Part shown: positions 1 to 37,702 of the stretch, piece after piece
Position numbering within the stretch: position 1 is the stretch's first letter
Layout of the letters: each line of letters opens with the position of its first letter
From: Elsinoe ampelina
Lineage: Eukaryota
Length of the DNA: 37,702 nucleotides
Direction: 5' to 3'
Assembly: GCA_010093995.1 (NCBI GenBank)
Contig: ML992502.1
Coordinates: 697,717-735,418, forward strand
Notes under the pieces: model-generated
What the model was told of the DNA's origin: nothing
Databases searched by the model: none
What the model saw: only the letters and a program-made list of their open reading frames with translations
Made by a program: the position numbers and the translations under genes

Positions 1-1673
1 GCATTCTATAAGTAAAGAGTATACCTAGAAGGAACAACCTTACCTATATAAGTCTATACTAACTATAAGAACCTATTATATTAGATAATAACTAAGGTTC
101 TTAATAGATAATAGATTTAATAGTTAGAAACACTTATAAGCTACAACTTTTAGATCTACTATGTTAAGGGATTAGAGAACAGTAGAGTAGACGCTCTTAG
201 CTAACAACTAGATTACTTAAAGAATATAATAATAATAGAGGCCTCTATACTAAAGTAGTAAGACGGCGCTCTAGTCTATAAGTACCTAAAGGTAGAGTAG
301 TTATATAGCCTTACCTAGGAGCTTACGTAAGAATAGAAGAAAGAAGTTATTTAAATATACTATAACGACCTAATAGTAGAGCATAGCAGGATTAATAAGA
401 CTATTAAACTTATTATATAAAACTACCTATAGAAAGGACTCTAAAATAATATTAAGACGTATATTACTATATACGATACATACTACAAGTCTAAGTACTT
501 ATAATATAAGCTATATAGGCTATTATAACTCTTACTACTACTAGACAAACTATAGTAATTAGTCACGATAGACTTTATAGGACCTCTACTACTATTAGAA
601 GAACCTCTTATAGGTATAAAGTATAATAGCATTCTAGTTCTAGTAGATAGGTTTACGAAGTATTACTACTTTATACTATATAAGACAATAGTAACTACCG
701 AGGATATAGCCTTTACCTTTCTCTAAATAATTGTTTTATAACATAGAGTACTACGAGACTTAATAACTAATAGGGATAAGCTATTTACGTTATAATTCTA
801 GTAATTATTTATAGATCTACTAGGAGTTAAACATAAGCTATTAACTTTCTTTTATCTATAAACGGACAAATAAACTAAATAGGCAAATTAAGTACTAGAA
901 TAGTACCTACGCTACTACCTAAACTATAAGTAAGACTTATAAGTAACACTATTACTACTTGTAGAGCTTGCTGTTAATAATAGAAAGTTAGCTAATAAAA
1001 TTTTACTATTTTATATAAACTATAGAATATACCTAGATCTATACTATAATATACTCGGAATTAAGCTAATATCTAAGGATACTAATATACTAGTAGCTAA
1101 TATTAAGAAACTATATACCTAGCTATACTACGATATAGTATTTATATTATAAAGAATAGTAGAGTTTACTAACTAGAAGAGAATTACAAGACTAATTCTA
1201 TAGAAGAGAGAGAAAGTTTACCTCCTTAGTAGAAATATTAAAACGAAACAACTAAGTAAGAAACTTAACTACACTAAACTAGGACCCTTTAAGATCCTAG
1301 AAAAGAAAAATAAAAACGTATACAAACTAGAACTACTAAGATATATAAGGATCTATCTAGTCTTTTATATATTACTACTAGAGAAAGTACTATAGAATAC
1401 TATACCCGGACCTATTAAACTAGATAAAGAAACATAGGAGCTATAGTATAAGATTAAAAGAGTTTTATATTATAAATCTATAAGGGGAAAGCGTTACTAT
1501 CTTATCCACTAGAAAGGATATTAGTATAGTAAAGTAATATAGGAACTAGAGAAACACCTTACCTCGTAAGTAATTCTAGATTACTAGACTAAAAACCTAT
1601 CCTAAGTAAACTAACTAGGTAGGCCCGACACTACTAATACTAAACAAAAACGAGAATGCCTAAGAAAGACTAC

Positions 1674-2222
1674 TTAGCTAATAGAAGTACTCTAATTATT
1701 ACTAAATAAGAAACTCTAATTAGAGTTAGGCATAAATAATCGCTAGTCCTATAGTAGGATAGGATCTACTAATAATAGTATTTCCTCCTACTCTAAGACT
1801 TAAATATAGGTCTCCTCTAGAGAAATTACTTTATCTACCTTATCCTCTAACTTTTATATCTCTTCGCGTAGGTAAAGCTTATTACCTATAGCTCTTTAAT
1901 AAGTCTCTTTTGCCTTTTTATAAGCTTCTTTAGCTTCCCTTCTAGTAGCTTTAGCTATAACTAATTCCTTTCGTAAGTAAATATACTTAGACTAGAGACG
2001 CTACTATTCTAATTTTGTTACCTAAATATTATAACTCGAGTAGTTACTTATAATATACTAGCTATAAATACCTAACTAAATATAGACTTTATAGTCTAGC
2101 CCTTTTAACTTGTAACAAGAGTAAGCTTATAGCATGTTAGTTCTAAATAACTTAATAAACTCCGAGAGGTTCTTTCGTATAGATATACTAGATTTACTAT
2201 GCCTTTAACGACTAGGAGGCAT
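1674..2222 (-). pseudogene. RIP-inactivated antisense accessory ORF of the Gypsy element (~182 codons): Cys6 cluster followed by coiled coil
   Basis: ATG at 2222-2220 and an in-frame TAA at 1676-1674 (549 nt). De-RIPed reading is approximately MPPSR..RKNLSEFIE..MPQACSCCKSKGLDCKVHVRSGVCGQCV..RSSCDI..SEW.RL, then an E/K/A/R-rich helix. Internal stops are TAA/TAG, consistent with RIP. Confidence 0.7.
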
Positions 2223-2296
2223 ATTTAGTATATAGCGTAGAAGGATAAGAAAGGATACTTACTTATTAGAATAACTCGATTAAAAGAGAAGAGTAA

Positions 2297-2757
2297 TATT
2301 ATAAACTAGTAGAATAGCTAGAGTATAGAGACATTAGGACTAATTAAACTACTAAGGTTATTATATGACCTAGCTCGACATTTACTTAATTCTCTATCTT
2401 CTCTAGTAGCTCTACTCTAGAGACTATAGAGCGCGTAGGTTACTAGTGGACGTGTACTCTATATTGCCTCTAACTCTTACTATAGAGCATATAGAGTATA
2501 TAGAGCATATAGTAAAGAATATATATATAGGAATAGTCCTTACCTTATATAAGTACTATAGTTAACCTCGTCTAGATAGCGAATACTAGTATTACTAAGG
2601 CTAGCCTTTATAATACTATCTAATTATACTTTATTATCTATAAGACATACCTTCTCTAACTCTTACCTTAGTGCTATTCTGCTATAGAAGTAGAACTACC
2701 TCGTTCTTAGCTTAGCTTAGACTACTAGCGTAGGCTGTATTTAGACAGTTTATAACA
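2297..2757 (+). repeat. 3' LTR of the Gypsy element (461 bp)
   Basis: Follows the PPT aaaagagaagagtaa. Begins tattataaact (RIP of TG...) and ends agtttataaca; the ends form an 11-bp terminal inverted repeat with one RIP-type mismatch. Confidence 0.85.
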
Positions 2758-2802
2758 TTTAGGTAGTAATTAATTCTTTTTTCTTCCCTATATAAGTTAA
2801 TA
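2758..2802 (+). repeat. Remaining 45-bp 3' end of the Copia 5' LTR
   Basis: Aligns without gaps to 7892-7936; all 8 differences are C>T. Followed directly by the PBS-like sequence. Confidence 0.9.
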
Positions 2803-5451
2803 GTTATAAGCCTAGTATAACTACCTCTATATAAGTAGATTACTTAGTTACTTTCCTACTCTATCTATTAGTTAATCCTCTATTATCTTGCTTTTTAAGT
2901 ATTAGAATCTATTAAGAACTGTCTTAATTATAACTATAGAATTTAGGTATTAATAAAGAGATAAATAACTATAGATACTAACACCTTAATAGCTAGAACA
3001 CCTATTATTCTTGCTATATTAGCTAAATAGGCTAGCTAGCTATATATTATTAAGATAAGAGCTTTAAATACTAAGATATAGAACCTTATTAATCCCTAGA
3101 AGACTATTAAGCTAGAGGGGCTCTCTAAGCCTTAGAGGCTAGAAGTAGTAAATATTAACTTCTTAGCACTCTTCTAGATATATAAGGAGGAATAAGTATA
3201 GTATAACAAATAATATAAGGCCTTAGCTAATTTAGCTAGCCTTATTTAGTTATTAATTGTACTATAAGTTCTTACTGTTATTTAGCTAGAAGAGGATTCT
3301 TATCTATAGGCTATTCTTTAAGCCTTAAAGAACAGATTTACTCTATCTAATATAGCTATATAGCTTAAAGTTAAAGCACTCTAGAGGAAATAACTCTCTA
3401 GTTCTTCCTTATAGAATATAGACTATTAGCTTTAGTAATAGAAAGAGGTTATAGACAAGGCTAGGAACTATAATCTACTAGAAGCTTAAGGCTTAAAGCT
3501 ATAGAGAGACTTCTTACTTTCTATCTTAAAGACTAAACTAGCATTTACTAATAAGTACCTTATTAATCTAGATTTACTAACTCTACTAACTATACTTAAA
3601 CTAATTACTAAGTTTAGATAGTTTTATAAACTCTATAAGCTATATAGCACTATAAAGGCTAGTAAGAGAGCTATAGCCTTCTCTATAGCTACTAAGAATA
3701 TTCTTTATAAGAAACCTAGTCTCTCTAGAGAGCCTAAATATATATACTAAGGCCAGCATAAGTAGATTAAGTACTATTACTTAAATAAGCATCTAAGGCT
3801 AGAAGGATAGACACTAAACTAGTAGACTATAAAGGAGGTTAAATAAAGGCTAAATAATAAAACTCTTAAAGAGAGAATTAAGGCTTCTATTACTAAGGAA
3901 GTATAATATTAAAAGGGGTTAACTCTACTAGTATTAATTAATATAGCTATTACTATTAGATTACACTTAGTATTTATTTTAGCTACTAGTAACATCTCTA
4001 ACTTATAAATACTAGATTCTAGAGTAACTAATTATATCTATAATTATACTATAAAGGACAGATATAAGGTTACTAGAATTATAGAACCTTATAAGAAGCT
4101 ATTCTATAGTAATACCTTACTTAGTATTAAGAGTTAAAGAACTATTAATATTATAGCTCTTTATAAAGGAAAGCCTATAACTATCTATCTTATAAAGGTA
4201 GCCTATATACTATTAATTATAACTAATCTAGTTAGCCTTAGGAGGTTTATTAATAGTAAAGTCTACTAGAATACTTAAACTATAGAGATTAGCTATAAAG
4301 GAATAGTACTCTTCTTAGTTATACTAAAGTATAACTAATATATCTTTAAGAATAACTCTAAAGTTCCTAATATTGCTACTATAGTATTAAGGGATAATAA
4401 TAATTATCTACTATTAGTATTTACTATAGTTACTATAAGGACTAATTAATCTTAGTATAAAGTTATAGGCTATCTAAGCTTAGAGTTTGTTAATTACCTT
4501 CTAACTACTATAGTTAGTAGTAAACTAACTCTAACTAAGCCTAGTTTAGCTTAACTAATTTATCTTAGGTCTCTATATTAGACTTATAAGCTATTAAATA
4601 CTTAGTAGATTATATTAAGGAGCTCTAATACTAAACTTGCTATATTAAAGCTATTTAAAAGAACTACCTTTAATATTATTATTAATAGATTTACTAGCTA
4701 TAATAAAGTAAGATATATAAGCTACTTTACTTATAGGACTACTAACTATTAACTAGTTACTACCTATGCTTATAGATATAAGATTAATAAAATCTATATT
4801 AAGATAATTACTTATATTAAAAGCAATCTTAGCTTTAAAATTAAATTTCTTAGGAGTAACAATAAGAGGGCCTTTAGCCTTAAATTTACTATCTTTCTAG
4901 ATAGTAAAGGAATCTATTATAAGCTATCTACTCCCTATACTTAAGCTTAGAATAGTTATAATAAAAGGATAAGAGCTATACTATTAAGGAGAGTAAGGGC
5001 AATTACTATCTTTACTAATCTACTAAGAGAATTATACTCTAAACTATATAGATTAGTAGCTTATCTAATTAATAGAATACCTCTTAAGAAGCTAGACTAG
5101 AAAACTCCTTTTAAGCTAGTTTATAGATGCTCTTTATTAGTTACTTATCTTAGGCTACTTAGATATAAAGCTTATACTTTAGATAAGCTTATTATAAGTA
5201 GTAACAAGCTTACACTAAGGGCTTACATTAGCTATCTAGTTAGCTATAACTTAACTAACATCTTTAGGATCTTTATACTAGCCTCTAAGAAAGTTATTAG
5301 AACAAGAGATATTAGATTTAATAAAACTTAGTTCTATAAGCTAGAGGAATAACCTTAGCTAAAACTAATTAAATTACTTAATCTACTAAGGCTCTTATAG
5401 GAGATTAATAAATCTAAAGGGGTATATAAAGCAGAGGAAATAACTAAACTA

Positions 5452-5523
5452 AATCTAGTTTAGAATCTAGTTTAGAATCTAGTTTAGAATCTAGTTTAGA
5501 ATCTAGTTTAGAATCTAGTTTAG
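5452..5523 (+). repeat. Tandem repeat, 6 x 12 bp (aatctagtttag), in the Copia integrase-RT linker
   Basis: Six identical consecutive units read directly. Confidence 0.95.
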
Positions 5524-7677
5524 TAGCCGAACTAGATATTATCTTAGACTCTAAGTTAGAGTAATCTAGATTAAGAGCTAAGCCTATCTTAGTAGCTAGA
5601 TAAGAGTTACCCTATTACACTAGATTAGTTACTACCTCTATTAGACTAATTAGAAGAGGCTATTCTAGATCTAAACCTAGCTTAGATCTAGGAATCTTTA
5701 CTAAATAAATAGTTCTTTAATACTCTAGCCTTACTACTATCTATAGTAGTATAGCTATCTCCTCTACTACTAGGAGAAGATAAAGCTAAAGGAGATAAAA
5801 TAGAAGTTTAAAATAAAGAGGTAGTTAAAGCTTAGCCTAAGTAACCCCCTTAAAGAATTACTATAAGGTTAGCTAATCTTCTTCCTAAATATATCCTTAT
5901 AATAAGAAGAATAAGAAAACTAAAAAGGCAAGTATATATTACTACCCTTATATAAACTAATAAGGCTCTTAGATATTACTAAGCCTTTAATACTTATCTA
6001 TTAATAATACTAACTTAGCCTAAGCTAGAATTAAGAGATAATCTTCTACTACTACTAGCTAATATTAAAGAACTTAAGGCTTATCCTTATAAGAAGCAAT
6101 TTTAAGAAGCTATAAAGGTTAAATTACTTACTTTACACTTAAAACATATATAGACTATTATACTAGTAGCTTAAGCTACTAGTAAGCCTATCTCTTTAAT
6201 ATAGGTATTTACTTATAAAGTTAATAATAAAGGAGAGGTTATAAAGTATAAAGTAAAAGTCTATATAAAGAATAATCTCTAATTAATAGAATCTAAGACT
6301 TATATAGTAACTCTAGCAGCTAAGATCTTTAGAATACTTATAGTATTACTTACTTATAAAGATATAGAGGCAATCTAGATAGATATTATTAATGCCTATA
6401 TTAATAGTCCTATTAATAAGACTACCTACTATACTATCCCTACTAGATTTAAGCTAGTAGTAGAGGATCTTATAAAGGACTATCCTAGTATTGCTCTATT
6501 AAATGTAATTCTCTTGCTTAATAAGGCCTTATATAGTCTTAAATAAGCTCTAGCTCTCTAGTATACTAAATTTACTACTACTCTAAAGAGTATTAGTTTT
6601 ACTTAGGCCCTCGAGGCTCCTTACCTCTAGCTAACTCCTAATATAATAATCTTCTTCTTTATAGATAATATTACTATTATATACCTTAAGAAGTATAAAG
6701 AGAAAGCTAATACTATTATTATAGCTCTCTATACTAAATATAAGATAAAGATGCTTAGAGATCTAAGCTAGTTTCTAGCTATCTAAGTTATAAGGGATAG
6801 ACTAATAAAGAGACTCTAGCTTAGCTAAGCCTAGTATATATAATAGATATATAGTAAGTTTATTATAGAACTAACAAGGCTAGTATTAACACTACTACTA
6901 ATTAAGATACTCTAACCTTATAAAGGCTAAGTATTACTATAAGAGATCTACCTATATTAGTAAAAGGTAAAATCTATTAACTTTATAGTAGTTATTATAA
7001 GGCCTAATATAGCCTTTGCTACTTCTAGATTGTTAGAGTATCTAATAAATCTATTACTAACTTACTAGAGAATAGCAAATAAAGTAATCTAATATCTCTA
7101 TAAAACTAAGAATTTAGCTCTTACCTTTAATAGCTTAATACTACTACTAATCTTTTAAGCTTTATTAGATGCTAGCTTTAGTAGCTACCTAACAAGGAAG
7201 AGCCTTTAAGGCTATCTCTTTAAGATATTTTAAGGATTAATTAACTAGAAAGCTATAAAGTAACTAATAGTTATAATATTAACTATAGAGGCTAAGCTAC
7301 TTACTCTTATAGAGACTACTAAGTAAGCTATATAGTAGAGAAGGCTAATAGCCTCTATCTATCCCCTTAAATATGTTAGTATTTAGTATAACAATTAGTA
7401 AACTATTAGTCTTATTACTACTTTAATTAAGAAGCTAAATATATATCTTTACTATATTAATATTTATTATTATTAGCTAAAACAAGAGATTAATTAAGCT
7501 AGAGATCTATCTAGTCCTATCTTAGTTATATAGACACTATTAGTAGATACACTAGCTAATAGATTTACTAAATTATTACTACCTAGGAGGTATAAGGCCT
7601 TCTTATAATAGCTATCCCTCGAGTTAGTAGTCTACTAACTAGCTATTATAGAGTTATAGCTACTTAGTAAAGGAGTA

Positions 7678-7936
7678 TATTAACCAAGGCATAAGCTAGA
7701 GCGCTAAGAAGATCCTAATTTAGTTTATCCTAAGGTTAAACTAAACACTATCTTATTATTTTACTAATCTATAATTAAATTAGATAATTATTGTCTTAAT
7801 CTGCTACTATTAAGGAGTTCTTTTGATTTAGCTATCTTTTAGTACACTAGGTTAAGTATTTATGTAGTTACAATCTACCTTATTTTAGTAGTTTAGGCAG
7901 TAATTAATCCTTTTTCCTCCCCTACACAAGTCAACA
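7678..7936 (+). repeat. 3' LTR of the left Copia element (259 bp)
   Basis: Follows the purine-rich agtaaaggagta. Starts tattaac (RIP of tgttgac) and ends gtcaaca, its inverted complement. The terminal 45 bp match 2758-2802. Confidence 0.85.
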
Positions 7937-8000
7937 CTGTCCAGACCGCTCATATCGTACACTATCTCCGTCGCGAAGACCTTTCATCTCATCCGTCCGC

Positions 8001-11000
8001 TCATGCAGTCAAATCCATAAGCTCACCTTCGGCTGCTTTCGCTGCCTCCAATTCCGCCTGTAGTCGTGCCACTTCCGCCTTCAGATTACGCTCCGATTTC
8101 GTCAGAGCGACCAGGCGCCTTGCTGTGACGTCTACTCCATCCCTCTCGACCCGTCCCTTCTCCGCCTGCAAAAGTGCAGCCTCAATTTCATGCTGAACCT
8201 GGTCGTCGAGCCCAGGTTGGTCACCCAGCTGAGTATTTACTACCAGATCCTGGTTCACTGACTGAGCTTCGCCTTCTGTCTCGATATCTTTCCAACCGGG
8301 AAGCTCGCTGTTGAAGATGAGGCTCCATATCATGCGAAAGTATTTGTAGCGAAGCTTGTAGCCAAAGCTGGGGATCTCAGATTCTGGTAGGAGTCGCACT
8401 TTCTCCTGTCGAAGCAGATGCTCGGCAGCTTGTGCGGCATAGACACCGCAATCGACGCTTCCAAACGGCTGCTGGTTCTGCGGCATCACTTCGGGTTGCG
8501 ACCAGATACGATGAGGAAAACCACTTGTCGGTGTTGGCCGGTGAATCCAAGGAAGGTCGCCTGTGACTGCGTTAGTACTTGGGATTAGGAAGATGAGGGT
8601 GACGACCTACCAGAATCTAAGACGTGCTCCACAAACCTGACAACATCATCCAACAGCTTTTGGAAACGTTTTGATTCCCTCTTTTCATTCGGTCCAGGTA
8701 GCTCCATGGAATCCCAAATCTGAATGAAGCCTTGGTTAGCATCGGAGAAATCGATCAAGACAGCCATGAAGTGCGTTCCGCTACCAAGCACGGTGACGAC
8801 TTTCTTGATTGGTCGCTCGAAAGAGTCATGACCTTGATTGCGGATTTCATCCAAGACTAGATCATTGTCGGGTATGTGATTGTCTCGTGGGTCGCGAGGA
8901 TCATCATTGACTCGTTGCCTCTCCAAGATCCAGCTACTGATCGTCCTCGAATTGATCCAGACGGGTTCGATCTCTCCACGATTTCTACTGACCATAGTCA
9001 TGACGAGGTCAATCATGTTCTCTGCAAGCCAAGCATCGGGACGCGGGTCTAGATCTGAATTTCCATCTCTGACAAGCGTGACGATGTCGCTGCATAGCGC
9101 TACAGTCCCGTGACTTTCGTCTATGTGATTGTAGGTCATCGGTTCACTATCCTTTCTAGCGAGCAAGGCGGCACGGTTGAGGATTTCCAACATAGGGCGG
9201 ACAATATATCGACGGTCTGAATCTGCGTCTTTGTCCTGAAACTCGCGGTATGTGTCGGCGAACTCCTCTGTGCGGCCATCCAGATTGAGATACTGGACAA
9301 CAGGTGGATCTGGAATGTCGGGATAGGTTGACACGGCCTTGGTCGTTTGTGGACCGGACTCTTCAGTATTCTTGTGAAGCTCGTTTTCGGTTTGGGTGGT
9401 CCCCTTGATACCATTTTGATCCTGGTTCTCGGTCCCGGCACCCTCATTAGGCACGAAAAGGCTGTCGTACTCATCATCATCATCCAGCTGATCGGGCCCC
9501 TCCACAACTTGTGTGTCATCGTTGTCTCGTGCAATGTCTTCGTCGAGATCTTCCATATCGTCCACATCAAGCGCGCCCTCCTCAACAGGAGCTTGAACCT
9601 GGAGAAACTGCTGTCGGTAGAACGAATACGGAAACCAGATACCGGCAAAGGTCTGCGGGAAAGAGATGACTGGGTAGTCCTGCTGCAGGCGATCATACCA
9701 TTCCGTTTCGTGGGCGACGCTCAGAGCAAGAGTGTCCATTGTGCGCATCGACCTCTGCGCTGTTGGAAACTCCCAAAAGAATGAGTTCGCCGTCCATGAC
9801 ATGAGTTGCACTGTGCGTCGGGAATAGTCGTAATCATCTAGACTTTGTGGCTCGCGTACAGACCATCCAGTGAACATGGCATCCCCAGCAGCTATGGGAA
9901 TGGTTGGTCTGCCACTAGAATCTAGTCGATGGAAAGCTCGACCGACGGAGTAGTTCATCGCATGTCTACAGAAAGCCACCAGGCGCTGACCAAAGTAGGG
10001 ACATTTTCCGCCAGTCTCGAGCCATTGTTTGATGATCTCCAGACAGAATGTCAAAAGCGATTCTTCAGTAAGATGATGTTTGTTGCACACCAGAACCATC
10101 GTATTGAATCGGCTCCACATCTCCTCGTAGAACCAATCCCATCCATCGTTATTTGTTGGTCCTGGCATGTTGCGGAAGAGGTGAGGTGCGCCATCTCTGT
10201 AACGCGGGACTTTGAGGCCAGCCTCATTTTCCATGAGAGTGATCATCGTACCGATCATTTCTTTCTCCTGGTCCGTCCATGGCGCGTAGGGCTGTGCTCC
10301 GGTAGATTTGCTGAGTAGCCACTGTCTGAGCCTTGCCCGTGTGAAATACAACTGCCGTGCACGAACAGGTGTCATCGATGCCGCGTCGAAACGTCCTGTA
10401 CGAGATTGTACCTGATGCGCTTGAATGGTTCGTGTATCGGAGATCTCAAGCAGTAGGCGATTGTATCTGGGTAAACATCGGCCTATCATGTACAAATTGT
10501 CCAGAGCACTGTCGATACGCAGTCTGACATCACTGTTTGAGGTGTATCCAGTATTTGGTGTCGAATTCGCGAGAGTCAAGCGCCTCATGGGTTCGACCAG
10601 AGCCATGATGTGAACCGGCTGTGCGTGCTTCAAGAGATTGAGAGCATAGGGCACGAGTACAGTGTTGATGGGAGCATGGAAGGCCACTACACCCTCCCAC
10701 AGACATAGCGCATAAACCTTCTCGACTGACGGCTGCAACGGATGGAAACCGCGGGCTGATAATGGTTCACCGTGTGGACCTGCATTGATGATGGGCAATG
10801 TGGCGGTGCGATCGCGGCCGTACGCATTTGTGTAGGATTTGGGGCTGATGATCTGTCTCCTCAATTCGTCCCTCAGCTCCAGTTTCGTCCAGGGGGGTTC
10901 GTGAATTAGGGAGTCTCTGGTCCAAGCAGACTGATGTAGCCTCCATAGCTTGATATCCATGGTGATCTGTCTCCACTCGGAGAGTGCGGTTGAGGGCTTG

Positions 11001-12820
11001 CTGTGACATTCTTCGCATATTCGGCGGCGGAAGACAGTATCCACTTTCATGGTTGAGCAGAGATGCTCTTTGCCACAGAGCATGCACGAATGCATATGAA
11101 GTGCCGTTTGAGAACATCCTAGAAGGCTGGTTCTTGCAAATTCGACAGTGGTGGAACCCGATTTTATCCGGTCCGCTGCTCGGTTTGCTGCTTGCCATGC
11201 TGCAATGAGGTCACAATTCCCCGCGGCCTGGGTTGCCGCAAGGCGATCCAGAGCAGCTTGGTACACAAAGGCTGCCAGTACTGTGTTATTCGAAGACACA
11301 TAAGTCTGCAACCATCCACTGAGACCCGCTAGATTCGGAGATTCAAGAAGATCCAGCATAGCTGGACTTGAGAGGACTGTTGTTCTGTCCCCTATCAGGC
11401 GAGGTAGGACAAAGAGAGACCGTCCATTCAATGAGCCCACAGAGACCAGAGGAGCGTGACCGAGAGGGGCTCTAGCGGTGTGACTTGAAGAAGCTCGAAG
11501 ACAGCGCTGTCGAATTGCAGCAATCCTTTCCCTGACCTCCCGAACAGAGCCAACCAACCCCACCATCTGGAGCTGCATGAACTTGAGAAGTTCTTCCGTG
11601 GACTTGCGCTGAGTCACAGTCCCAGGCCCACCAGAAAATTTCAGCTTGGTGTCAGCCTGTTTCTTCATTCCTGGACCTCCTGTCTCCTTGACTTTGCGAG
11701 TGACAGCCCAAGGGCTATTCGGGGCAATTATAACCTCGTTTGCGACTTTTTGCGAATCGATGGTATTCGCAACAACCTGTACGACCTCTGGAATTGTCTT
11801 CTTGTCCCTGGCTGAGATACGAGGACAGAAGGAGAAAGGTGGCCAATCGAAGTAGTCGCCGGAAGCACCTTGCTTGATCTCTGAATAAGTGGATTGCTTC
11901 CCATAGCGAAGGACTTCGCCCGCCTGGGCGTAGGAACGAATCTTGTCAAGGTCGAAGTTGATGTCCCATCGAAGTGTGGCTACGGTTTCGATAAAAGCAA
12001 TGACTGGATCGAGCCTTTTCTTGCGGAGCCATTTACCTCGCGGCACGTCATGGTGTAGACGATTGGTTGTGTCTGCCAGGAGTTGGCCAATGATTCTGAC
12101 GTCAGCTTCGTTTGGAAAAACCTCAACGGTCAGACTCCCAGCGGGAATCGTGACTCCTTTTGCGCGCTGTTTGGAACTTGAGTGATCAGTCTCATTCCAG
12201 TAAGGCGTGATCAAGGTGCCTGAATTCTGATCCCTGATCTTGACATCCCACCAACGAACGAATGTTTTGGCCCGTCCCACTGTTCCTTCCTGAATGGTAA
12301 TAGGCTCGACAAGTTCGAATGCACGATTTTGGTGCACAGTGGCTTCTGAGATGTGATGTGCTCCGAGTGTTGCAGACTTTCTGGTATCCACTGGCTGGTA
12401 ATTGAGAGTAACTCCCGGTTTGACTCTCAAGCCTTCATCGATCTTGCGTTGCGCTCTGGCCTCGTTTGTGACTTTCAGTCGATCGATGGGTCTTATACCA
12501 AACCCGCGGGGTCGAGTGCTGTGCTGCGCCGGAAAGCTGGTAGTATCCGGATGTGATGAGGCTGCCGATTGCAGCTGTCGGGCGATCCTAGGAGCACGTG
12601 TTGGGACTTGAGGGTTACTGGTGTCGGAGTCTACAGGTTCCTCAGATAACGCAGAAGAAGAATCGTCATCGCCATCCGCAGATTGTCCGAAGTCCTTGTC
12701 GCGGGTTGAGCTCTGTTCCTGTGGCGGGAAAGGAGCTGGGTCTTCAAGCTCTTCCGGTTCTTCATCTTCGTTGTAGTTGATCTCGCGCCGTACTCGCTTT
12801 GGATTTCGACGGTCCGTCAT
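8001..12820 (-). CDS. Large orphan multidomain protein (~1589 aa): acidic N-terminus, CxxC..CxxC Zn motifs, two degenerate HNH/His-Me-finger-like motifs, acidic linker, Ulp1/C48-family cysteine protease, C-terminal coiled coil. Exons 12820-8611 and 8560-8001.
   Basis: The 1411-aa and 162-aa ORFs join in frame across intron 8610-8561 (GTAGGT donor, TACTAAC branch, CAG acceptor; an alternative in-frame CAG lies at 8567). The join completes the C48 motifs WLAENMID, GTHFMAVLID, IQIWDS and QQPFGSVDCGVY (His-Asp-Gln-Cys). The HNH-like call is tentative. Confidence 0.85.
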
Positions 12821-13053
12821 CGTTCTCTGGTAGTGTAAGGCATGAAAGAACTACCAGAACGTGTCCACTACCGTGATCGCGAGATGTTGCCGCCCGTTAC
12901 CGTTATCTGGTAGTGTGACGCACGCAAGAACTACCACATCCTACCCACTGCCTTGGTTGTGAGATATTGCCGGCCTGTCACCGTTGTCTGGTAGTGTGAC
13001 GTATAGAAGAACTACCAGGTCTTGTCCACTGCCGTGATTGTGACCTGATGTTG
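12816..13053. repeat. Three tandem 80-81 bp imperfect repeats, each carrying a TCTGGTAGT-N15-ACTACCA(GA) inverted repeat, abutting the ATG of the orphan gene
   Basis: Units are anchored at cgttNtctggtagtgt at 12821, 12901 and 12982. Each continues with aagaactacca..ccact.cc..g.t.g.ga. Confidence 0.92.
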
Positions 13054-14021
13054 ATCGTGAATTCGCACGGAAATGAAAGAAGGTGACTTGCCTGGAAGCT
13101 GAGAGAAATTTCCAAGTGAATGCCCCGCGCTAGCCCGCTTCGTTCAGTTTCTGCCGCCGAGCTCGCTGCAGGTCCCCGGGCTTTGACGCACCATGACAAC
13201 AAGTCCGCCGTGCCAAGACCTGCCAACAATGCCCCGGAGTCTTTCCATCGTTCTCGTATCATCGAATGCCACATCTTGCGTCAAGGGATAGGCCGTGTTA
13301 AAGTAGGGACGATAACATGGGCCAACTACCAGAATGCCGGTGCGGAAGAATCCATGCGAGCGCGGACGAAATCGTGGTCACTCGCCGATGAAGACCTCAT
13401 TTTTGGCCGGAGCCTTTTACCAGAACCCTGTAATCTTAGATAGTACCAATTGAAGCCAGCTTTGCCTTTGCGCTATATGGCGTTGCTGTGCGTCCACGTA
13501 GTGGAAGGGGTAATGCTCCACCAGCCAGGTATGGGCTTCAGCCCCGACGATAGGATCTCAATCAACATCATACTCGTGAGGCCCCCTTCACACAAGCATT
13601 TCTGGAGTCTGGCAGAGTAGCACGGCACCGACGACGCGCACAAGACCAAAAGTTTTGCTGGCCCGTTGTGTCCAGCACTTGGGTGCCGCGGCCTGTGCAT
13701 CGATACATGCAAGAATGACCCGTGTTGCGCATGAAACGACGAAGTCCTAGCTTGCTGATTACGACAACCAAATGAATACAACCAAAAGTAGTAGATGCGG
13801 GAATGGCAAACGACGTAGCAAACGCGAGGTTGACCATTTCGGGAGATGATGTTGAGATACCTCTCTTGGCAAACTTCTGGTCTGTGCTTGGAGCGGGAAA
13901 AAAAGTTCCAGCTCCACCACCTCCGAAGACTTCGTGGATATCGCCTTCCCTTGCTCGACTCTCAGGTCAGCATCGATCCGACTCTTCTTTTCTCCGATTG
14001 TTTCTGCAGCAATTCGCGACC

Positions 14022-15491
<1,470 letters not shown>

Positions 15492-17068: not shown

Positions 17069-17831
17069 GATTGTCTGGTAGGATACGTGTAGCAAACGAC
17101 TGGAAGATCTGATTCTATGGACATGTCTGTACCATGTCGCCGCCTCGAAAATGACGTAGTTGAGCCGGCCGGGTGGGTCGGGAAGTTTGTGAGGTTCATC
17201 TCATCTCAAACTTGGATTCTTGGCTTTCCTTCATGCATTATACAACACTCGGTAGCATCGACGAGCTTTGTTTTCCTGGTACAGTCACCCTTCAAGTGCT
17301 GTGTGTTCACTCAGTCATCACGGCGTGCGAAGGAGGCTCTGCCAGGACCGCTGTCTCAGAGACCCTGGCTCCTCCATCTCGACTGGGGAGCAAAATTGTG
17401 CTCGCGTACGCGGAAGGTCCTCCCAGATCATTACACACACTGGATATACGCTGGAAGGTACGATGAGAGCTCGAGAAGTTCCCATCCTACCAGAAATCTC
17501 GATGTCCAACCCTCGGCAGGTTTGACCGCCGGGTGACATGGCACTTGTGATAGAATCCTCCCAGCTCGAGGTAACCTCAATGGTCGGCACTACTCCATCA
17601 GGCAGAGGTGCTGGACTGTCTTCTATCCCGGGCGTTGCCTGTCTTCTATTGCGGGCACATGATCAGTACTGGCAGAGCCACAATTGCTTAAAGAAGACCA
17701 CAGCCTCCCAACTCATCTGGTAGGCCACTGCATCGTTCGTCCAACGATCACGTGATCAGCGACGGCGACAAGCAAAAAGACTATGACCTAACTCAACTAC
17801 GACCGGTGTACCAGGGCTTCTCAACTCATTC

Positions 17832-19047: not shown

Positions 19048-22000
19048 CTACTCACTCCCATTGACGACCGGCAGCCTGGATACATCCACCTCCATGCCAT
19101 TACCCTCTTCACCCTCGCCTCCTTCTTCTTCTTGCTCCTCCTCATCCCCCATCTCCTGATCTTCGTCCTCTTCACCTTCTCCTTCCTCGCCCTCACCCTC
19201 TTCCTCCTCTCCCTCCTGCCCTTCCTCATCGGCTTCATCGCCAGCATCATCCTCGTCCGCCGCCCCGTCCAATTTCGGGAACATCGACTTCCTCGGCGTC
19301 GGGCTCTGGCCGCGCTGGACCACGTCCTCGTCCACCTCGCTCAACTCACTCTCATCATCCGCGCTCTCATGGATGCTTCCCACTGGAGTCGCCACGCTGG
19401 TCCTCCTGCGCTCGATGATAATCTGCGGCTCCCGTCTAGGGTATGCCGGCTCGGGCTCCGGTGCAGGCTGGCTGGCGAATTTAGCCACGCAGGCTTCTGC
19501 GCAGGTGCGGACTTCTCGACGGCCGACGCCCATCTTGCGTTTGACTGGGGTGGTTTCGCCGGGCGCTGCGGTGGTCGTGGGGTCTGACATGTCGTAGGAT
19601 GGTCCTGGATCGGGGACGCCGGCGATGAAGTTCCTGATGTGCATGAGTACGCGATTGTGGTCGATGGCTTTGGCGTCTTTCTCTGCCTTTGCTGTCTGGA
19701 GATGCTCGGCCCATAGCTCCTTGCCTTTGGTGTCGAAGAGGTAGGCGTAGGCGTCTCCGATAAGGTCGTCGAGCTGTTGTCCTTTGGCGAGGTTGGAGTT
19801 GACCTTCTTGAATTCGAGAGCGTCTCGTAAGACGTCCAAAGCAGGGTCCTTGGTGTCGGCGTCCTGACACCATTTCTCCAGTACGTCCTTGCGTCTCAAG
19901 AAATCGGCGTGGTCCATACCACTGAAGACCGTCGTCTCTTGACCGGGTGGAACTTTACCTGCACGGCGTAGCATCCTGGTGTAGACCACGAAAATCTCAT
20001 GCCAAAGTTCGGTGTGTCCAAGGTAGTCCCCGGACCGCTTGCGGACCCTACGGGCAAGCATTTCCATCAGATCCTTATTTCCCAGACTTTCGAGGATACC
20101 CATGAAGAAGCGTGTATACTGCGTGGTGTAGACGAAATGACGTCCAGCCCGCTCAAGATCAGGCCGCCAAACTTGCAGCACCATCGTCTTAGTGAAGAGT
20201 TGCTGAGTGAGCTCATGCTTGGCCCCGAGCGCTGCAGCGTAGTCAAATCCGTTAGACTTGTCACCGTAGACAATGCGAGCCGCTCGAGCTATGATACGGT
20301 GGTGCCAATTTGACTTGTCGGCGTTTCTCAGCTGCTTCAATACACTCAGCACATAAGTATCCCACTCTTCAATGTCATCACAGATGGGTACCTTGCGAGC
20401 ATACGGTGTAGTCTGGATAATCTCGCAGGCTTCTGAAAGCTCGAAAGCTCTTGCCGGTCGGCCATCTGGTCCTTTGCGAGTCATCAACTTGTGTACGATC
20501 GACACGATCTTGTAGTGCGGCTCGAGTATTGGCTCCTTTCGATCCCTACGCTCCTTTGGCAGCAGCTCGATTGCGCGCTGGAATGCATGTATAACAAGTG
20601 CATGACTGGGTCTTTGCTGTCCGCCTGCTTGTTCCGCAGTCGCGTTGGACAACTTCCAAAGCACCTTCCCAAGCATATAATGGAGTGACCACTGCTCGGG
20701 GTTACCGGATATCGCTCGTTGGAACAGAGTCTTTGCAAGCTTCCATGCAGTGTAGGTCGACAGCGGGCGGAAGGCAGATACTTCGATGAGTGATTGAGTA
20801 CTCAGCCATCTCTTGGCGCCTTGAACGCCGAAAGCCTGCATGCTAAAGGGCGGTCGAGATGAAGCGTACATGCGGTTCGCGAAGTCCGCGTACAGCTCTG
20901 CGACCGCAGCCGAGGACTCGAATTCAGGATCTGTAATCCGTGTCGCGAGAGCTGTTGCCATTCTGTAGCAGTGTATGACGGAGCGTTGGAGTTGCGCGAT
21001 CTCCTCTGGCTCGTTGTTCAACTTCTCAGCATGCCATGTAACGTTGTCCTCGAGCAGCGAATCGAAAGCTTGACCCAGTCGGAACCATGACTCCCACTTC
21101 TCGGAATTGTACTCCAGATCCTGTGTGAAGAATGAGATTGCTTGTTCCAAGTCTTCGGTCGGAGTCGTCGGGTTCCGCTTGGAAGAGCGGAAGCGAGTCA
21201 AGCACAGGTAGCCCATGACGAAGTACCAGCCTTTGTTGGACAACGCTGCCAACTTGTCGGGGAGGGTGGTCAGTATGATCTCGCCAGTGCCTTTCAGACA
21301 GCGGTAAAGGTCGATAGGATTGATTGGTGATTTGAAGAACTGGTTGTAGATTTCTCTGTTCCTCAAGATTTCCAGCGAGGCCTTCTTGCGAGCTACCACC
21401 GGATGTACACGCTCGAAAGGATCCTTCAATGAGTGCTTGTGGAGATCTGCCAGTTTGATTTTGGAGACTTGCATCAGCAGCAGGTCCACTGCCTGTACCG
21501 CTGCAGCTCGATCCAACGACACATCCCTAGAGCAATCATGTGGTAGAGCTTCCCAGGATGGGTTGACGAAGCAGTTGAGGTTGTACAGATCCAACAGTAC
21601 CTGTGAAAATTCAAAGTCATAGCCAGCGACATGCTTCAGAGATGGTAACTCCTTCTTGAGGAGATTCAGAAGAATCCTGTTCGATCCCTCGCAGAAGCCT
21701 CGACCGCCAACAGAAGTATGCACTGATCGGAGCATTTCCATTCGATGACGATCAAACTGCTCTTGCTCAAACACTTCAGGCAAATCTTTGGCGGCTTCCT
21801 GAAATGCGAGGTACAAAGTGATCCAAGCGCTTAGTTGAGCCTCGTTGAGCAGAGTCGTGGTCATTCGATAGGTCTTTGCCTTTGATACGTCCTTATCGAA
21901 TGGCACCGGTTTCTCACCAACCCGGACTTCATCCTGAGCAAAGTTTGCAAACTGGAGGATCTTGAGGATGGCAACCAGGGATGTCGCAGTCGACTTGATG

Positions 22001-24913
22001 CGATCGAGGTCCATGCACTCGAAGACATCCGTGGAGATCTTAGTCATATCAAGCACCTTCAACAACGACTCGTGAATCTGTTTAAGATGCATGAGTAGTG
22101 ACTGTTGTCGTTCCTCTTGATCCTCATCTTGGAACGTGGGTGCCTCGATGTCAGAGACCAGAACCTCGAGGATGCGAAAGCAGCAGACCGCAACCATGGG
22201 AATGTACTCGATGTTCTGGTACGCCAGACGAAGTCGCTGCCACAGAGCCAGAATAACCGAACTTGAGCAATTGCATAGGAATGAGATCAGCTCCCTGGAC
22301 GCTGGAAGCTGACCCTCCGCATGGGAATCCTCCGTGGTGAGGCCATCCATTTCTGTATCTCCGTTCTGGTCTTGATGGTCGCCTCGAATATCCTGAAGAC
22401 GTTTAACATGAACATGTTCCAGAATCGGTTCCAATCCTTCGATGATGGCTGCAGGATCTTCCGAGTCCGAACCAAAGACTCGGGCGAAAAAGTCAGATGT
22501 TGTTAGTTTAGCAACTTCGCGATCAATGGCCTCAAGAGAAAGTGTTGGCATGAGAGAGTTGTTTGGTAGGCTAATGACTGGTCCGGACCGGGCTGCAAAA
22601 ATGTCGCGAAGCTCTTGCAGACATGCCAGGACTTTCTCTTGATCGACCAGGTCGAGCATCTTGATCTGGACTGCTGCAGCCCAGACGTAGCGTAGATTCA
22701 GAGGATCCTCGAGACCTCCTTCTTCATCGTTTGTCATCTGTCTTAGCTTGATAGTGTCCTTGGCCAGCTCAGACCACCTGTCAGTGCGACTTTGTTGTTC
22801 ACTGAGAGCTGAGAGACGATCTGTAGGCTCGGCGTATTTGACCAGAGAGAGCATCTCGAGATGAACCTCGAAAATACCTTGGACCATTTCAGCTAATTGG
22901 CCAATACTGGGAAGCGGACTTGAAGTTGCCGTCCTGTCCGCAGCAGAAGCGAGCTCGTCGAAGAGCTGATTGACGTTGCTGAATATGTACCCATCGAAGC
23001 CGAGTAGTAATTGCCTGATGTAGCTAAGCAGCTTCTCCGGCCACAAATGTCCTGCGTAGCTCGACTGGTCGTCTCTTAATTGAGGCTGTATGAGAGTCGA
23101 TGCTGGCATGAATAGTAGTTGTATGAGTGAAAAGGCTGCTTCAGAGGCTGTGAGCGAGGTATCGTTGATTCCATCGAGGAAAGAGGCCAGTCCAGCATGA
23201 ACATCAAGCGGCGATTTCGAAGCATGCCTGGTCTGAACTTTGGTGTCCGACTGAAGGGCAGATAACAAGTGTAAGAAATTGGTCTCTGTGTCTGGGCTGT
23301 CGCTCTTAGACACGGCCAATCGAGGCATACTCTCGGGTGTTTCAGCAAGCATTTGGTACATATCAAGCCCAGCAGCGGCAATGGCGTCGGAGGTAGTGTC
23401 TGATATGTCTGAGGGACCATTCACTCGACTGGGGCGAGCTATTCCAAGCTGACCGAAAGTGCTGAGTTTCAGCTTCTTAAGGACTTCGTCGGTGGCGCCG
23501 AACGACCAGACATCATTGTACTCAGTCTCCTGGAATGGATCCTTTTTGGCTTTCTTCGCACTAAGAAGACTATCCTCTGTAGCAGGTAGACCTTCTGCCA
23601 AAGATTCTCGGGCACGTAATCTCTTGCTTTTGACTCGGCCCGTATCCGGACTATCCAATGCAGCCACATCACTAGAGCGCTTCCTGGTTGGTAGACCAGG
23701 CATTGGTGGCTCTCTCATACTTGAAGCACGAATGGCAGCGAGACTGCCCCAGGCTGGTACCGGAACGTTTGGAACGCCGCCGTCTCGGCCGGGGAAGCAT
23801 GCCTCTTGATCCTGTGCGCTTGGGAAATAGCTGACGTAGTCCAGTGAAAGTGCGTCAGGTGTCCTCTCGTCGCCTTTAGATATTGTCGCGGAGAATTTGA
23901 GTATGCCGATTGCGTGTCTTCTGGACGATGCGGAAGTCGCACTGGTGGTGGTGTCAACCAACACCTTCGCCAAATCGGTCCAGGACAAAAGCACTGCCAA
24001 TTCAAGCAGACGATCGCTGGCACTTTGTTCAACCTCGGATAGCAAAGGCTGAGTCCCGCTTAGACCTTCTAACTCGACTTCGTCATCTTGCAACATTGAA
24101 AACCGGCGACGAAGCAGATCATGTAAATGCTTTGTTTTCACATCGCTCAATGGGGCCTGAATGAGGGAGAGCGCATCATGAAGATCTTGAACGATCTTGA
24201 GCAGCTCTTGAGAAGCGAGACTCTGATCGAATCCAGCAAATGCAAGCAAGTCGTTTATTGCATCGTCTTCTCCTTCGAGGATAGCTTCCAAGCAATATCG
24301 AGCGATCCTTTTACTGCGTAAGATTAACCCCACTTTGGATGCTTGTTGCCACACTTGGTTGTCGGATTCATCCTTGTCAAGTGCGTCTACGAAATGGTCC
24401 AAAGCTGAAATTGCGGCATCTCGTACTTCTGTCCAGTTCAGGGTCCGACTCTGTGCCAGGTGTTGCCGATGCTGGTGTTTCACCAGGTCAAGAATGAATT
24501 CGCCGTAGTTCTTGTGGGCCAGATGGAGAATCTGCGGAAGCGTACTGGGTGCACTTTCTCCCGATGCTACAGCTATCACCGGGTCACCGACGACGTATTC
24601 TGTCCATTGGTCTTGCAATGTAGAAGGGCCGTAAAGTTCGATTTTGCGAAGCTCTGACAACGACTCGGGATACTTGAAGATTTCGGATTCGAATAGTTCA
24701 CGGTAGGCTGCAGCAGCTTCCGGGTATGAGTCCGCTCCATCAGAATGAAATTTGAGAGCACTTTGATAGAGCTTCAAAGCCTCCTCGATTTGTAGCTCCT
24801 TGGTGTCATCGACCTCGACATCAGATTCGTCGTCCGACTCAAGGTTGAGAGCTTTGAATGCAGACTATGTCATATAAGTATAATAACATGAGCCATAGGG
24901 TAGACCATACCAT
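19048..24913 (-). CDS. HIR3: Histone transcription regulator 3 (HIR complex subunit, Hir3/CABIN1 family), ~1939 aa. Exons 24913-24911 (ATG only) and 24864-19048.
   Basis: ATG|gtatgg..catag| gives MSAFKALNLE..DDTKELQIEEALKLYQ.ALK. TPR-like segments are present (WESWFRLGQAFD, EPHYKIVSIVHKL, DKSNWHHRIIARAA, WRPDLERAGRHFVY), with an acidic tail. Confidence 0.93.
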
Positions 24914-36453: not shown

Positions 36454-36536
36454 AGACATTTAGTAGTAATTATTAGGCAGCTTATAGCTATAATAAGACA
36501 TTTAGTAGTAATTATTAGGCAGCTTATAGCTATAAT
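36454..36536 (+). repeat. Direct tandem duplication with a 42-bp period in the Copia integrase-RT linker
   Basis: agacatttagtagtaattattaggcagcttatagctataat occurs at 36454 and 36496. Confidence 0.93.
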
Positions 36537-37702
36537 TATAATTAACTACTCTTTAGTTATAAGAATCTATAAACTACTTAGGCTAAATAACTAACACCTA
36601 ACTACCCTTTAATCCCTAAATATAAATAACTATCTACCCCTATTAAAGAATAGAGGGAGTAACACTAACATCCTAAACTAGATCCTTAACCTGTTAATAA
36701 ATAGGGGAAGTAACTTAATATTGCTAATTATAAAGGTAAAGACCTTATAATACTACTACCTAAAGTTATTAGTGAACTATATTTAACCTTTAATCCTATA
36801 GTTAATGTTAATTAACTACTAATATATATATAGAATAAGGATATTAACTTCCTTATTACACTATTTAATATATAACCTCTAATTAGTAAAAGGAAAAGAT
36901 CTCTCTTACTATAAGAAACTATTAGAAGGTCCCTTAGAATATATCGCTAGATTAATTATAAGAAACTTAATAATAGCAAGATTATTAGATCTATAGCTGT
37001 TAATTTCAAGCTAGACCTATAAATAGTAAGAGATACACTATTCTCTCCTAAAGGTTATTACTAGTAAGCTATAATAGAGGTAGAGTAGAAGGCTCTAACT
37101 AACTCTAAAACTCTTTTAATTATTAAGAAATTATAGGCACTAAGAGGTATTAGGCTAATAATAGGTAAATAGGTCTTTAAGACTAAGAGGCTTACTAATA
37201 GTAAAGTTAAAAGATATAAGGCTCGTTAGACTATAAGAGGCTTTACTTAAAGAGTAGATATTAACTTTGTTAGAACCTTTATACTAATACTAAGAGCTGA
37301 AACTAGAAAAGTAATTCTTATATATACTCTTTATTATAACTAGGTTATTATAATAGTAGATGTAGTTACTATATTCCTTAGACTAGACATTAATATTAAG
37401 AACTATATCTTCTACCTAGAAGGTATACTAATTCCTAATAAACAGGACAAGCTTATTGTTCTTATAAAGGGCTTATATAGGCTTAAGTAAGCTACTACTC
37501 TCTAGTATAACGCTATAGTTAAGGCACTTCTATTACTTAGTTTTATTAGATCCTATAGTAATGCCTATCTCTTTATTAATAAGTATTATATAGTTCTTAT
37601 ATATATTAATAACTTTAGAATTATTACTACTAGGTAGAAGTATATAGATAAGCTAGTTAAGGATCTTTATCTTAAGTTTCTAATAAAGATTATAAACTTA
37701 AA

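Follow-up and report, generated by a model that had tools for sequence, protein, structure and literature searches.

The window analysed here (the whole stretch of DNA under study, 37,702 nt of the grapevine fungus Elsinoe ampelina, assembly GCA_010093995.1, contig ML992502.1, positions 697,717–735,418 of the forward strand) carries an intact, expressed gene in which a zinc-finger/nuclease-like core is fused to a protease of the SUMO/ubiquitin type. All coordinates below are those of the window. The gene belongs to a family that is undescribed and so far found only in Dothideomycetes, and its start codon is overlapped by an array of 80-bp repeats with hairpin-forming arms. As the explanation of these features we favour, by a modest measure, a dimeric DNA- or chromatin-directed nuclease-like protein to which removal of SUMO or ubiquitin is coupled and whose expression is throttled by hairpins in the leader. 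The gene had been singled out in a reading of the letters alone (the sequence-only reading). The observation itself is confirmed by our analysis, while the interpretation is partly supported.

On the minus strand a long reading frame (8585–12850) is continued after a short gap by a second frame (8001–8606). The two belong to one coding region of two exons (8001–12820, stop included), with exon 1 running from the ATG at 12820 to 8611 and exon 2 from 8560 to 8001 (TGA at 8003–8001). They are separated by a sole intron of 50 nt (8610–8561), which begins with the donor GTAGGT at 8610, contains a TACTAAC branch site and closes with the acceptor CAG at 8561. Splicing yields a protein of 1589 amino acids (aa) that is letter-identical across the junction (...VLDSGDLPW...) to the hypothetical protein BDZ85DRAFT_293400 of E. 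ampelina (P0003). A 4581-nt contig from sequencing run X1 (depth 18.8) covers 7908–8559 and 8610–12538 and skips exactly the 50-nt intron, and we therefore regard the gene as transcribed and spliced as modelled; run X1 is not recorded as RNA, the spliced contig being the sole sign of its RNA origin. The same contig adds a 3' untranslated region on the minus strand at 7908–8000, up to the limit of the contig. Runs X2–X4 yielded short, low-depth pieces only.

The protein starts with a basic stretch, PKRVRR, resembling a nuclear-localisation signal; an acidic, disordered region comes after it. Next come a core of about 1000 aa with a zinc cluster, an HNH-like unit and a degenerate copy of this unit, then an acidic linker, a clan-CE isopeptidase domain and a coiled coil. 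Pfam gave no match for the whole protein and, for pieces of it, only the weak C48 match described below, and sequence searches of the PDB with exon 1, the whole protein, the C-terminal 387 aa and two profiles returned low-complexity and coiled-coil noise only. PADLOC and NCBIfam models yielded only two kinds of match, both judged spurious: the coiled coil to a cyclase model (E 0.0045) and the Cys pattern to a multihaem cytochrome model.

The protease domain is Ulp1/SENP-like (clan CE), occupies about aa 1265–1478 (8337–9028, minus strand) and is divided by the intron, with His and Asp encoded in exon 1 and Gln and Cys in exon 2. An AlphaFold2 model of aa 1203–1589 was built from an alignment of the query with its C48-bearing relatives and compared with the PDB by Foldseek, which gave 31 matches at E ≤ 0.001; every one of those listed is a clan-CE protease. 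The best were SENP1 (2xre_B, E 5e-6, TMt 0.53) and Ulp1 (2hl8, E 2e-5), and the fold matches include SENP1, Ulp1 and SENP2 (E 5e-6 to 1e-4) as well as SENP5, NopD, XopD, OtDUB and CidB, thus spanning SUMO-, NEDD8- and ubiquitin-specific enzymes of the clan. His1350, Gln1434 and Cys1441 are invariant in all six sequences of the alignment, and Asp1370 of the query is Asn in the other five; judged by the motif, His1350, Asp1370 and Cys1441 would be the catalytic set and Gln1434 the oxyanion residue, in the expected order. Two points weigh against this assignment: the Peptidase_C48 model (PF02902) scores 13.9 bits (E 0.049) on the C-terminal 387 aa, below its gathering cutoff of 20.7, and the confidence of the structural model is only moderate (predicted local distance difference test, pLDDT, 61.8). 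As modelled, the C-terminus has a clan-CE protease fold with its catalytic residues in place, in keeping with the Ulp1-type protease of the sequence-only reading. In the fold comparison suggested there, the core had no PDB match at E ≤ 0.001 (best E 0.96).

The protein ends in a coiled coil, seen as helices in the model, which is predicted to form a parallel homodimer (aa 1530–1585; 8016–8183, minus strand). Two copies of aa 1480–1589 reached a complex score of 0.61, compared to 0.00 for the best of three controls. The runs agreed in at least 57% of contacts, the pLDDT of the partner was at least 66, and the contacts lie in register with heptad spacing over aa 1530–1585. Of 30 proteins solved as pairs of one chain, 21 reach the mark used for this score, whereas none of 23 solved as single chains does; for eukaryotic proteins the figures are 17 of 29 pairs, only 1 of 7 among those lacking an older solved relative, and 0 of 30 single chains. 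Part of this result may be owed to the likeness of coiled coils to many structures already solved.

The core (aa 120–1100; 9521–12463, minus strand) is conserved throughout the family and corresponds to no Pfam family. It was aligned and modelled with AlphaFold2 (pLDDT 79.1, predicted template modelling score 0.74) from 59 sequences, the query plus 58 relatives picked out of 146 for their long coverage. Its first landmark is a Cys/His zinc cluster of the Cys4 type at aa 577–606 (11003–11092, minus strand) comprising His577, Cys579, Cys582, Cys588, Cys602 and Cys605, around which the model places short strands and a helix (aa 576–606). Cys579 is found in 58 of the 59 sequences, Cys602 in 56, Cys582 in 51 and Cys588 and His577 in 49 each; Cys605 is taken from the query sequence and the alignment block and was not counted. 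The zinc motif of the sequence-only reading is thereby supported. The second landmark is a putative beta-beta-alpha, HNH-like unit at aa 697–732 (10625–10732, minus strand; Ser698, His715, Asn719, Asn728), modelled as strands followed by a helix at aa 697–731 bearing His715, Asn719 and Asn728. His715 and Asn728 are present in all 59 sequences and Asn719 in 55, and these residues may correspond to the canonical HNH positions. A second, degenerate unit resembling the beta-beta-alpha type at aa 956–1014 (9779–9955, minus strand; Thr1003, Asn1012) lacks the His; its Asn1012 is kept in 54 of 59 sequences and sits on a similar strand-helix at aa 1004–1014. When aa 640–760 were aligned with aa 925–1060 by hhalign (probability 67%, E 5e-5, 29 columns), Asn719...Asn728 fell onto Thr1003...Asn1012. 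The tandem HNH-like arrangement of the sequence-only reading is supported by evidence of moderate strength. Positions conserved in at least 90% of the alignment are Cys579, Cys602, Ser698, Asn719, Asp774, Pro879, Cys912 and Asn1012.

Several leads point from the core to HNH proteins. A PHROG family named 'HNH endonuclease' gives a weak match at aa 562–654 (E 0.022). In the ESM Atlas the named neighbours, which serve as leads only, are HNH/Endonuclease VII clusters with scores of 0.76–0.79; a bacterial cluster with an HNH name appeared as a weak hit in the first search, and an HNH cluster of Nucleocytoviricota (462 aa) in the second. When the core was compared with BFVD by Foldseek, the top matches were proteins of Pithovirus LCPAC403 (E 9.1e-5, 471 columns) and Fadolivirus (E 3.3e-4), together with a Pithovirus 'Zn-finger protein' (E 3.5e-4) and a Yasminevirus 'HNH endonuclease' (E 0.066, TMt 0.51). 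The leads, from PacI and from phage and giant-virus HNH proteins, are individually weak and mutually consistent. On the other side, Pfam HNH models failed to match any of three query pieces and 28 short relatives at a threshold as lax as E ≤ 5, nothing relevant came from searching PDB sequences with profiles, Foldseek placed no PDB entry within E ≤ 0.001 of the core, and the giant-virus matches combine low template modelling (TM) scores (0.31–0.34) with high root-mean-square deviations. On balance we consider membership of the core in the HNH fold to be likely, and the core would then be a zinc-dependent HNH-type module that binds or cuts DNA.

Even so, the two HNH-like units could be catalytically dead binding modules, which would leave the isopeptidase as the sole enzyme activity and make the protein a lineage-specific regulator of chromatin or DNA repair that directs a deSUMOylase or deubiquitinase to particular sites. 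The missing His of the second unit and the failure of HNH sequence models to recognise either unit fit this explanation, as does the spacing of only four residues from His to Asn, since canonical HNH enzymes have a longer one. So does the make-up of the relatives described below, many of which are protease-free, as would suit scaffolding, and some of which carry C2H2, PHD or SAP additions pointing to chromatin targeting. The invariance of His715 and Asn728 is what one expects of catalytic or metal-binding residues and speaks against dead modules, although structural roles could produce the same pattern. We rate dead modules as rather unlikely.

To define the family, aa 101–1100 were searched with phmmer against 1.84 billion representatives of 50%-identity clusters. 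This yielded 147 proteins at E ≤ 0.001 including the query, 88 of them at E ≤ 1e-10 and 15 at E ≤ 1e-30, the best other match having 27% identity and E 2.4e-46. The gene is hence not the orphan that it had been taken for: 146 further clusters share its core, and together they make up a sizeable family of proteins of 1000–2100 aa. The nearest relatives are 27–30% identical to the query and the other aligned sequences in the set of 59 are 17–26% identical. Among 158 other retrieved proteins, aa 841–1070 are covered in 150, aa 401–840 in 67 and aa 101–400 in 10; the N-terminal 100 aa, the acidic linker and the coiled coil at the C-terminus are matched by none of the 158. Thirty representatives were looked up, and all 19 with an organism name come from Dothideomycetes, the other 11 being nameless. 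Named members belong to Plenodomus, Parastagonospora, Zymoseptoria, Friedmanniomyces, Elasticomyces, Teratosphaeriaceae, Zasmidium, Pseudocercospora, Aureobasidium and Sphaceloma. The family is therefore represented in plant pathogens (Zymoseptoria, Parastagonospora, Plenodomus, Pseudocercospora, Elsinoe) as well as in rock-inhabiting black fungi. A metagenome scan with the relative P0158 found one weak locus of 2.6 kb (L001). In titles and the beginnings of abstracts we found no description of the family; those on the E. ampelina genome and on RIP contained nothing bearing on the gene, and neither did passages of PMC3417536.

Several species carry more than one divergent member of the family. 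Two examples are SNOG_10777 and SNOG_10305 of Parastagonospora nodorum, each of which occurs with at least 90% identity on dozens of isolate contigs (94 for one of them). A word-based protein search found no orthologue of the E. ampelina gene, the sole match being the protein itself (P0003). The same search with the neighbouring ChAPs gene as a control found orthologues in E. batatas (89%), E. fawcettii (85%), E. australis (83%) and Myriangium (76%), and the gene is for this reason regarded as either lineage-restricted or very fast-evolving. The high divergence, the several paralogues per genome and the lack of orthologues in sister species suggest a rapid turnover as in conflict-related genes.

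Pfam was run on all 146 relatives in three sets (E ≤ 0.01, 1e-4 and 1e-3). The core of the relatives again matched no Pfam family. In 11 of the 146 a ubiquitin-specific protease (USP, the UCH family) lies C-terminal to the core, at the same position as the C48-like protease of the query. C2H2 fingers were found in 4, PHD in 2 (plus one weak match) and SAP in 1, and no transposase, integrase, reverse transcriptase or helicase was detected. A C48-like domain was recognised by iterative hidden Markov models in 5 of the 158 other retrieved proteins (P0027 from Sphaceloma murrayae, P0047, P0104, P0107 and P0122), and many relatives have no protease at all. P0027 is the closest Elsinoaceae relative with a C48-like domain; its source record bears the name 'Beige 1', which looks like an annotation error because neither a BEACH nor any other Pfam domain was found. 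Sub-threshold matches to an MCM3-like winged helix (E ~2e-4) were seen in P0017 (aa 1245–1302) and P0055 (aa 449–501) and may represent one more DNA-binding module gained by family members. A FastTree phylogeny was computed from 73 representatives spanning from aa 700 or earlier to aa 1020 or later; 74 partial ones were excluded. One supported clade holds five of the six C48-bearing members, and the USP-bearing members are spread over at least two. Both protease labels are clustered on the tree (0 and 2 of 500 shuffles were as low), and the branch leading to the query is long and its placement unresolved.

The recurrent and interchangeable fusion of one core to two unrelated proteases is strong comparative evidence for a common process in which nucleic-acid recognition or cleavage and the removal of SUMO or ubiquitin act together. 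In our preferred explanation the dimer would bind DNA via its zinc/HNH module, possibly nicking or cleaving it, and at the same site would strip chromatin or repair proteins of SUMO or another ubiquitin-like modifier.

The second group of findings concerns the repeats at the start of the gene. Tandem Repeats Finder reports an array with a period of 80 bp at 12810–13043 (minus strand; 2.9 copies, 77% matches, score 279), which is covered by contigs of run X1 and overlaps the ATG, and a repeat search shows three copies of 88 nt at a spacing of 80 and 81 nt. Each unit carries the palindrome TCTGGTAGT-N15-ACTACCAG; the pattern TCTGGTAGTGTRA-N(8-14)-AGAACTACCA occurs three times compared to 0.00 times expected. 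In a three-way alignment all copies have the same arms (TGGTAGTTCTT and ACACTACCAGA, read on the mRNA strand), and the differences are found in the loop and over much of the flanks. All three palindromes lie on the minus strand and are predicted to fold as RNA hairpins: the proximal one (12826–12856) with -12.2 kcal/mol (z -3.52), ending about 6 nt before the ATG, the middle one (12906–12936) with -9.9 kcal/mol (z -0.48) and the distal one (12987–13017) with -10.1 kcal/mol (z -2.23). That three hairpin repeats reach the start codon had been noticed from the letters alone, and this description holds.

Run X1 contigs cover 12518–12841, 12863–13218 and the sequence from 13235 onward at a depth of 6–8, and the array is consequently transcribed, on one strand or the other. 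The mRNA strand has only two ATGs within the 374 nt upstream of the start codon and frequent ones further upstream. Judged from this distribution, the leader would measure about 130–370 nt and include the array; the 80-bp repeats most likely sit in the 5' leader. Of the two upstream ATGs one opens a frame of 2 codons and the other a frame of 8 codons (12817–12843, minus strand). The latter begins within the loop of the proximal hairpin, and its stop codon TGA shares letters with the main ATG (ATGA). The three hairpins and this 8-codon upstream open reading frame (ORF) could limit how much of a potentially harmful nuclease is translated. Some results count against a role of the repeats as structured RNA. 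The whole repeat region of 271 nt folds no better than shuffled sequences (z -0.48), and neither is the middle hairpin significant on its own; with three copies only, covariation of the arms cannot be judged, and the contigs over the repeats could stem from a transcript of the opposite strand. An Rfam scan gave nothing relevant, and a scan for bacterial promoters and terminators, a method not applicable here, found nothing.

A further copy of the arm motif is found at the other end of exon 1. The octamer TCTGGTAG at 8607–8614 (minus strand) spans the junction of exon 1 and the intron, the sole splice donor, in agreement with the earlier observation that the core of the repeats recurs there. 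The window holds 12 copies of TCTGGTAG compared to 1.57 expected (largest number in a shuffle 5), of which 8 lie within 8240–13333; the excess in the coding region is estimated to be borderline once the four copies in the repeat arms are removed. Three more copies were noted within 650 bp at 17074–17723, near the 5' end of an alpha/beta-hydrolase gene. At the donor the motif is part of a 17-nt inverted repeat with 16 of 17 positions matching, one arm of which lies in exon 2 (8375–8391, minus strand) and pairs with the 5' splice site, and the other of which holds TCTGGTAG|GT (8606–8622, minus strand). The corresponding pre-mRNA segment of 268 nt has a predicted energy of -92 kcal/mol compared to -76 +/- 4.9 kcal/mol for shuffled sequences (z -3.25, 0 of 200 shuffles as stable), and in the predicted fold the donor is buried in the closing stem. 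This long-range stem could add control at the level of splicing.

An alternative for this part of the locus is that the array has no RNA role and no link to the protein. It would be a neutral minisatellite or else a group of transcription-factor sites within a bidirectional promoter shared with HMT1, with the motif at the donor a chance copy. The array indeed lies between two head-to-head genes, as a gene for an arginine methyltransferase of the PRMT1/HMT1 type, with several introns, follows on the plus strand at about 14020–15490 (PRMT_C, E 5.6e-58) and shares with the studied gene an upstream region of 1.2 kb, which is mostly covered by RNA contigs. Palindromes with a fixed spacer are typical sites of dimeric DNA-binding proteins. 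The unremarkable folding of the region as a whole, the lack of an Rfam match and the four TCTGGTAG copies at other places in the window's gene-rich part fit this alternative too. It accounts less well for arms that are invariant in three copies with diverged loops and flanks, for the RNA contigs over the array, for the near-perfect inverted repeat and stable fold at the donor, and for upstream ATGs that are few within the array and many beyond it. We consider it possible but doubtful. With leader hairpins, an overlapping upstream ORF and a buried splice donor the gene offers a compact case for post-transcriptional control in a filamentous fungus.

The gene lies at the edge of a long block of unusual composition. 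The G+C content is 0.51–0.53 in the gene compared to 0.24–0.29 in positions 1–8000. The AT-rich block adjoining the 3' end of the gene (1–7930) has a G+C content of 0.276, a TpA/ApT ratio of 1.93 and a (CpA+TpG)/(ApC+GpT) ratio of 0.17, as after repeat-induced point mutation (RIP), whereas the corresponding values for 7931–13050 are 0.52, 0.50 and 1.26, which is normal, and the gene is not RIP-mutated. The sequence-only reading had described an intact gene free of RIP beside a block of transposable elements; the description of the gene was right, and for the block the analysis shows RIP-like composition only. Within the block we noted a 12-bp microsatellite (AATCTAGTTTAG) at 5428–5559 and no long internal repeats. 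At 7900–7938, the boundary in G+C content, three other run X1 contigs (depths 131, 16 and 324; one of them 1060 nt long) share only about 32–37 nt and then continue into unrelated sequence, which suggests that an expressed repeat element ends here, next to the 3' end of the gene.

The gene itself might be, or recently have been, part of a selfish element: a DNA transposon carrying Ulp1 with TCTGGTAG as subterminal repeats, or a free-standing HNH endonuclease gene of homing type, possibly derived from a giant virus, which would spread through cuts at a target site. Its position at the edge of the RIP-like block would agree with such an origin, and the copies of TCTGGTAG are grouped near either end of the gene (at 8240, 8383 and 8607 on one side and within 12826–13333 on the other). 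The absence of an orthologue in a search that finds ChAPs orthologues in three Elsinoe species, the several divergent paralogues per species and the giant-virus zinc-finger/HNH proteins as best structural neighbours of the core are likewise compatible with it. Yet Pfam found no transposase, integrase or reverse transcriptase domain in the protein or its 146 relatives, and there are no terminal inverted repeats at the boundaries of the gene: a scan of 7700–13700 found no boundary pair, the best boundary-spanning pairs having 15–25 nt at 72–87%. Being free of RIP mutations in a RIP-active genome, the gene is probably single-copy. Its spliceosomal intron and host-like G+C content also speak against such an origin, and the preservation of the two P. 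nodorum paralogues across isolates is more in keeping with fixed genes than with active elements. We regard the selfish-element explanation as improbable, and the sequence-only reading's derivation of the gene from an Ulp1-carrying transposon is not upheld. A transposase of the KDZ/Zisupton or MULE type was rejected as no such domains were found, and a housekeeping Ulp1/Ulp2 on account of missing orthologues and a different architecture.

A last, very improbable version would make the family a conflict or defence system of Dothideomycetes, in which a dimeric HNH nuclease of giant-virus or mobile-element ancestry and an interchangeable C48/USP protease would act on DNA in a toxin-like or surveillance mode, comparable to nuclease-deubiquitinase fusions of the CidB type in conflicts between bacteria and hosts, and in which the protein would recognise the TCTGGTAGT palindromes in its leader and at its splice donor and so regulate itself.

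The neighbours of the gene are ordinary host genes. Beyond HMT1 there follow the alpha/beta hydrolase, a TPR-containing frame of 1938 aa, the ChAPs gene and two oxidoreductases. The 1938-aa frame (19048–24864, minus strand) is uninterrupted, has a weak TPR repeat as its sole Pfam match and is another large uncharacterised protein. A second RIP-like AT-rich block at 33901–37702 (TpA/ApT 1.81) brackets, together with 1–7930, a gene island of about 26 kb with normal composition.

We finally compared the protein with known systems, among them CidB, ZRANB3-type HNH proteins, KI-MULEs and Zisupton/KDZ elements. To the Ulp1/SENP proteases (MEROPS C48, clan CE) the likeness lies in the fold of aa ~1265–1478 (SENP1, Ulp1, SENP2 and SENP5, E 5e-6 to 3e-4) and in the occurrence of His, Asp, Gln and Cys in the order of the family. 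The query differs by its unrelated N-terminal core of 1200 aa, its C-terminal coiled coil and a C48 score below the gathering cutoff, and clan-CE enzymes that cleave ubiquitin (OtDUB, XopD, CidB) match its domain too. Unlike the housekeeping Ulp1 and Ulp2, from which its architecture had already been distinguished in the sequence-only reading and is indeed distinct, it has no orthologue in other Elsinoe proteomes by word-based search. Ulp1/C48 domains are carried by DNA transposons, namely the Mutator-like KI-MULEs and Zisupton/KDZ elements, and with these the gene has in common an Ulp1-like protease in a large non-housekeeping protein and repeat-rich surroundings; in contrast to them, the query and its 146 relatives contain no MuDR, DDE or KDZ transposase and no CxC domains by Pfam, and the gene is not framed by terminal inverted repeats.

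For the core, PacI (3m7k), an HNH/His-Me finger nuclease with zinc sites, is a named comparator and a weak lead. The zinc-finger/HNH proteins of giant viruses (Nucleocytoviricota) are its best BFVD matches but are shorter (350–500 aa), reach TM scores of 0.31–0.51, show no link found at the sequence level and have no protease in their names. Wolbachia CidB has an analogous layout, in that a pair of nuclease-like units precedes a clan-CE isopeptidase, and its deubiquitinase domain is among the fold matches (7fiu, E 1.4e-3). CidB is bacterial and has an antidote partner, whereas no partner gene is evident beside the query gene, and its nuclease-like domains are of the PD-(D/E)XK type and not HNH. 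A further parallel is provided by the USP-bearing paralogues of the family itself, such as SNOG_10305 with 1825 aa. Their protease is a C19 USP of a fold unrelated to the C48-like domain and their core identity to the query is below 30%, but they have in common with it a core of about 600–1000 aa and a ubiquitin-family protease at the same C-terminal position.

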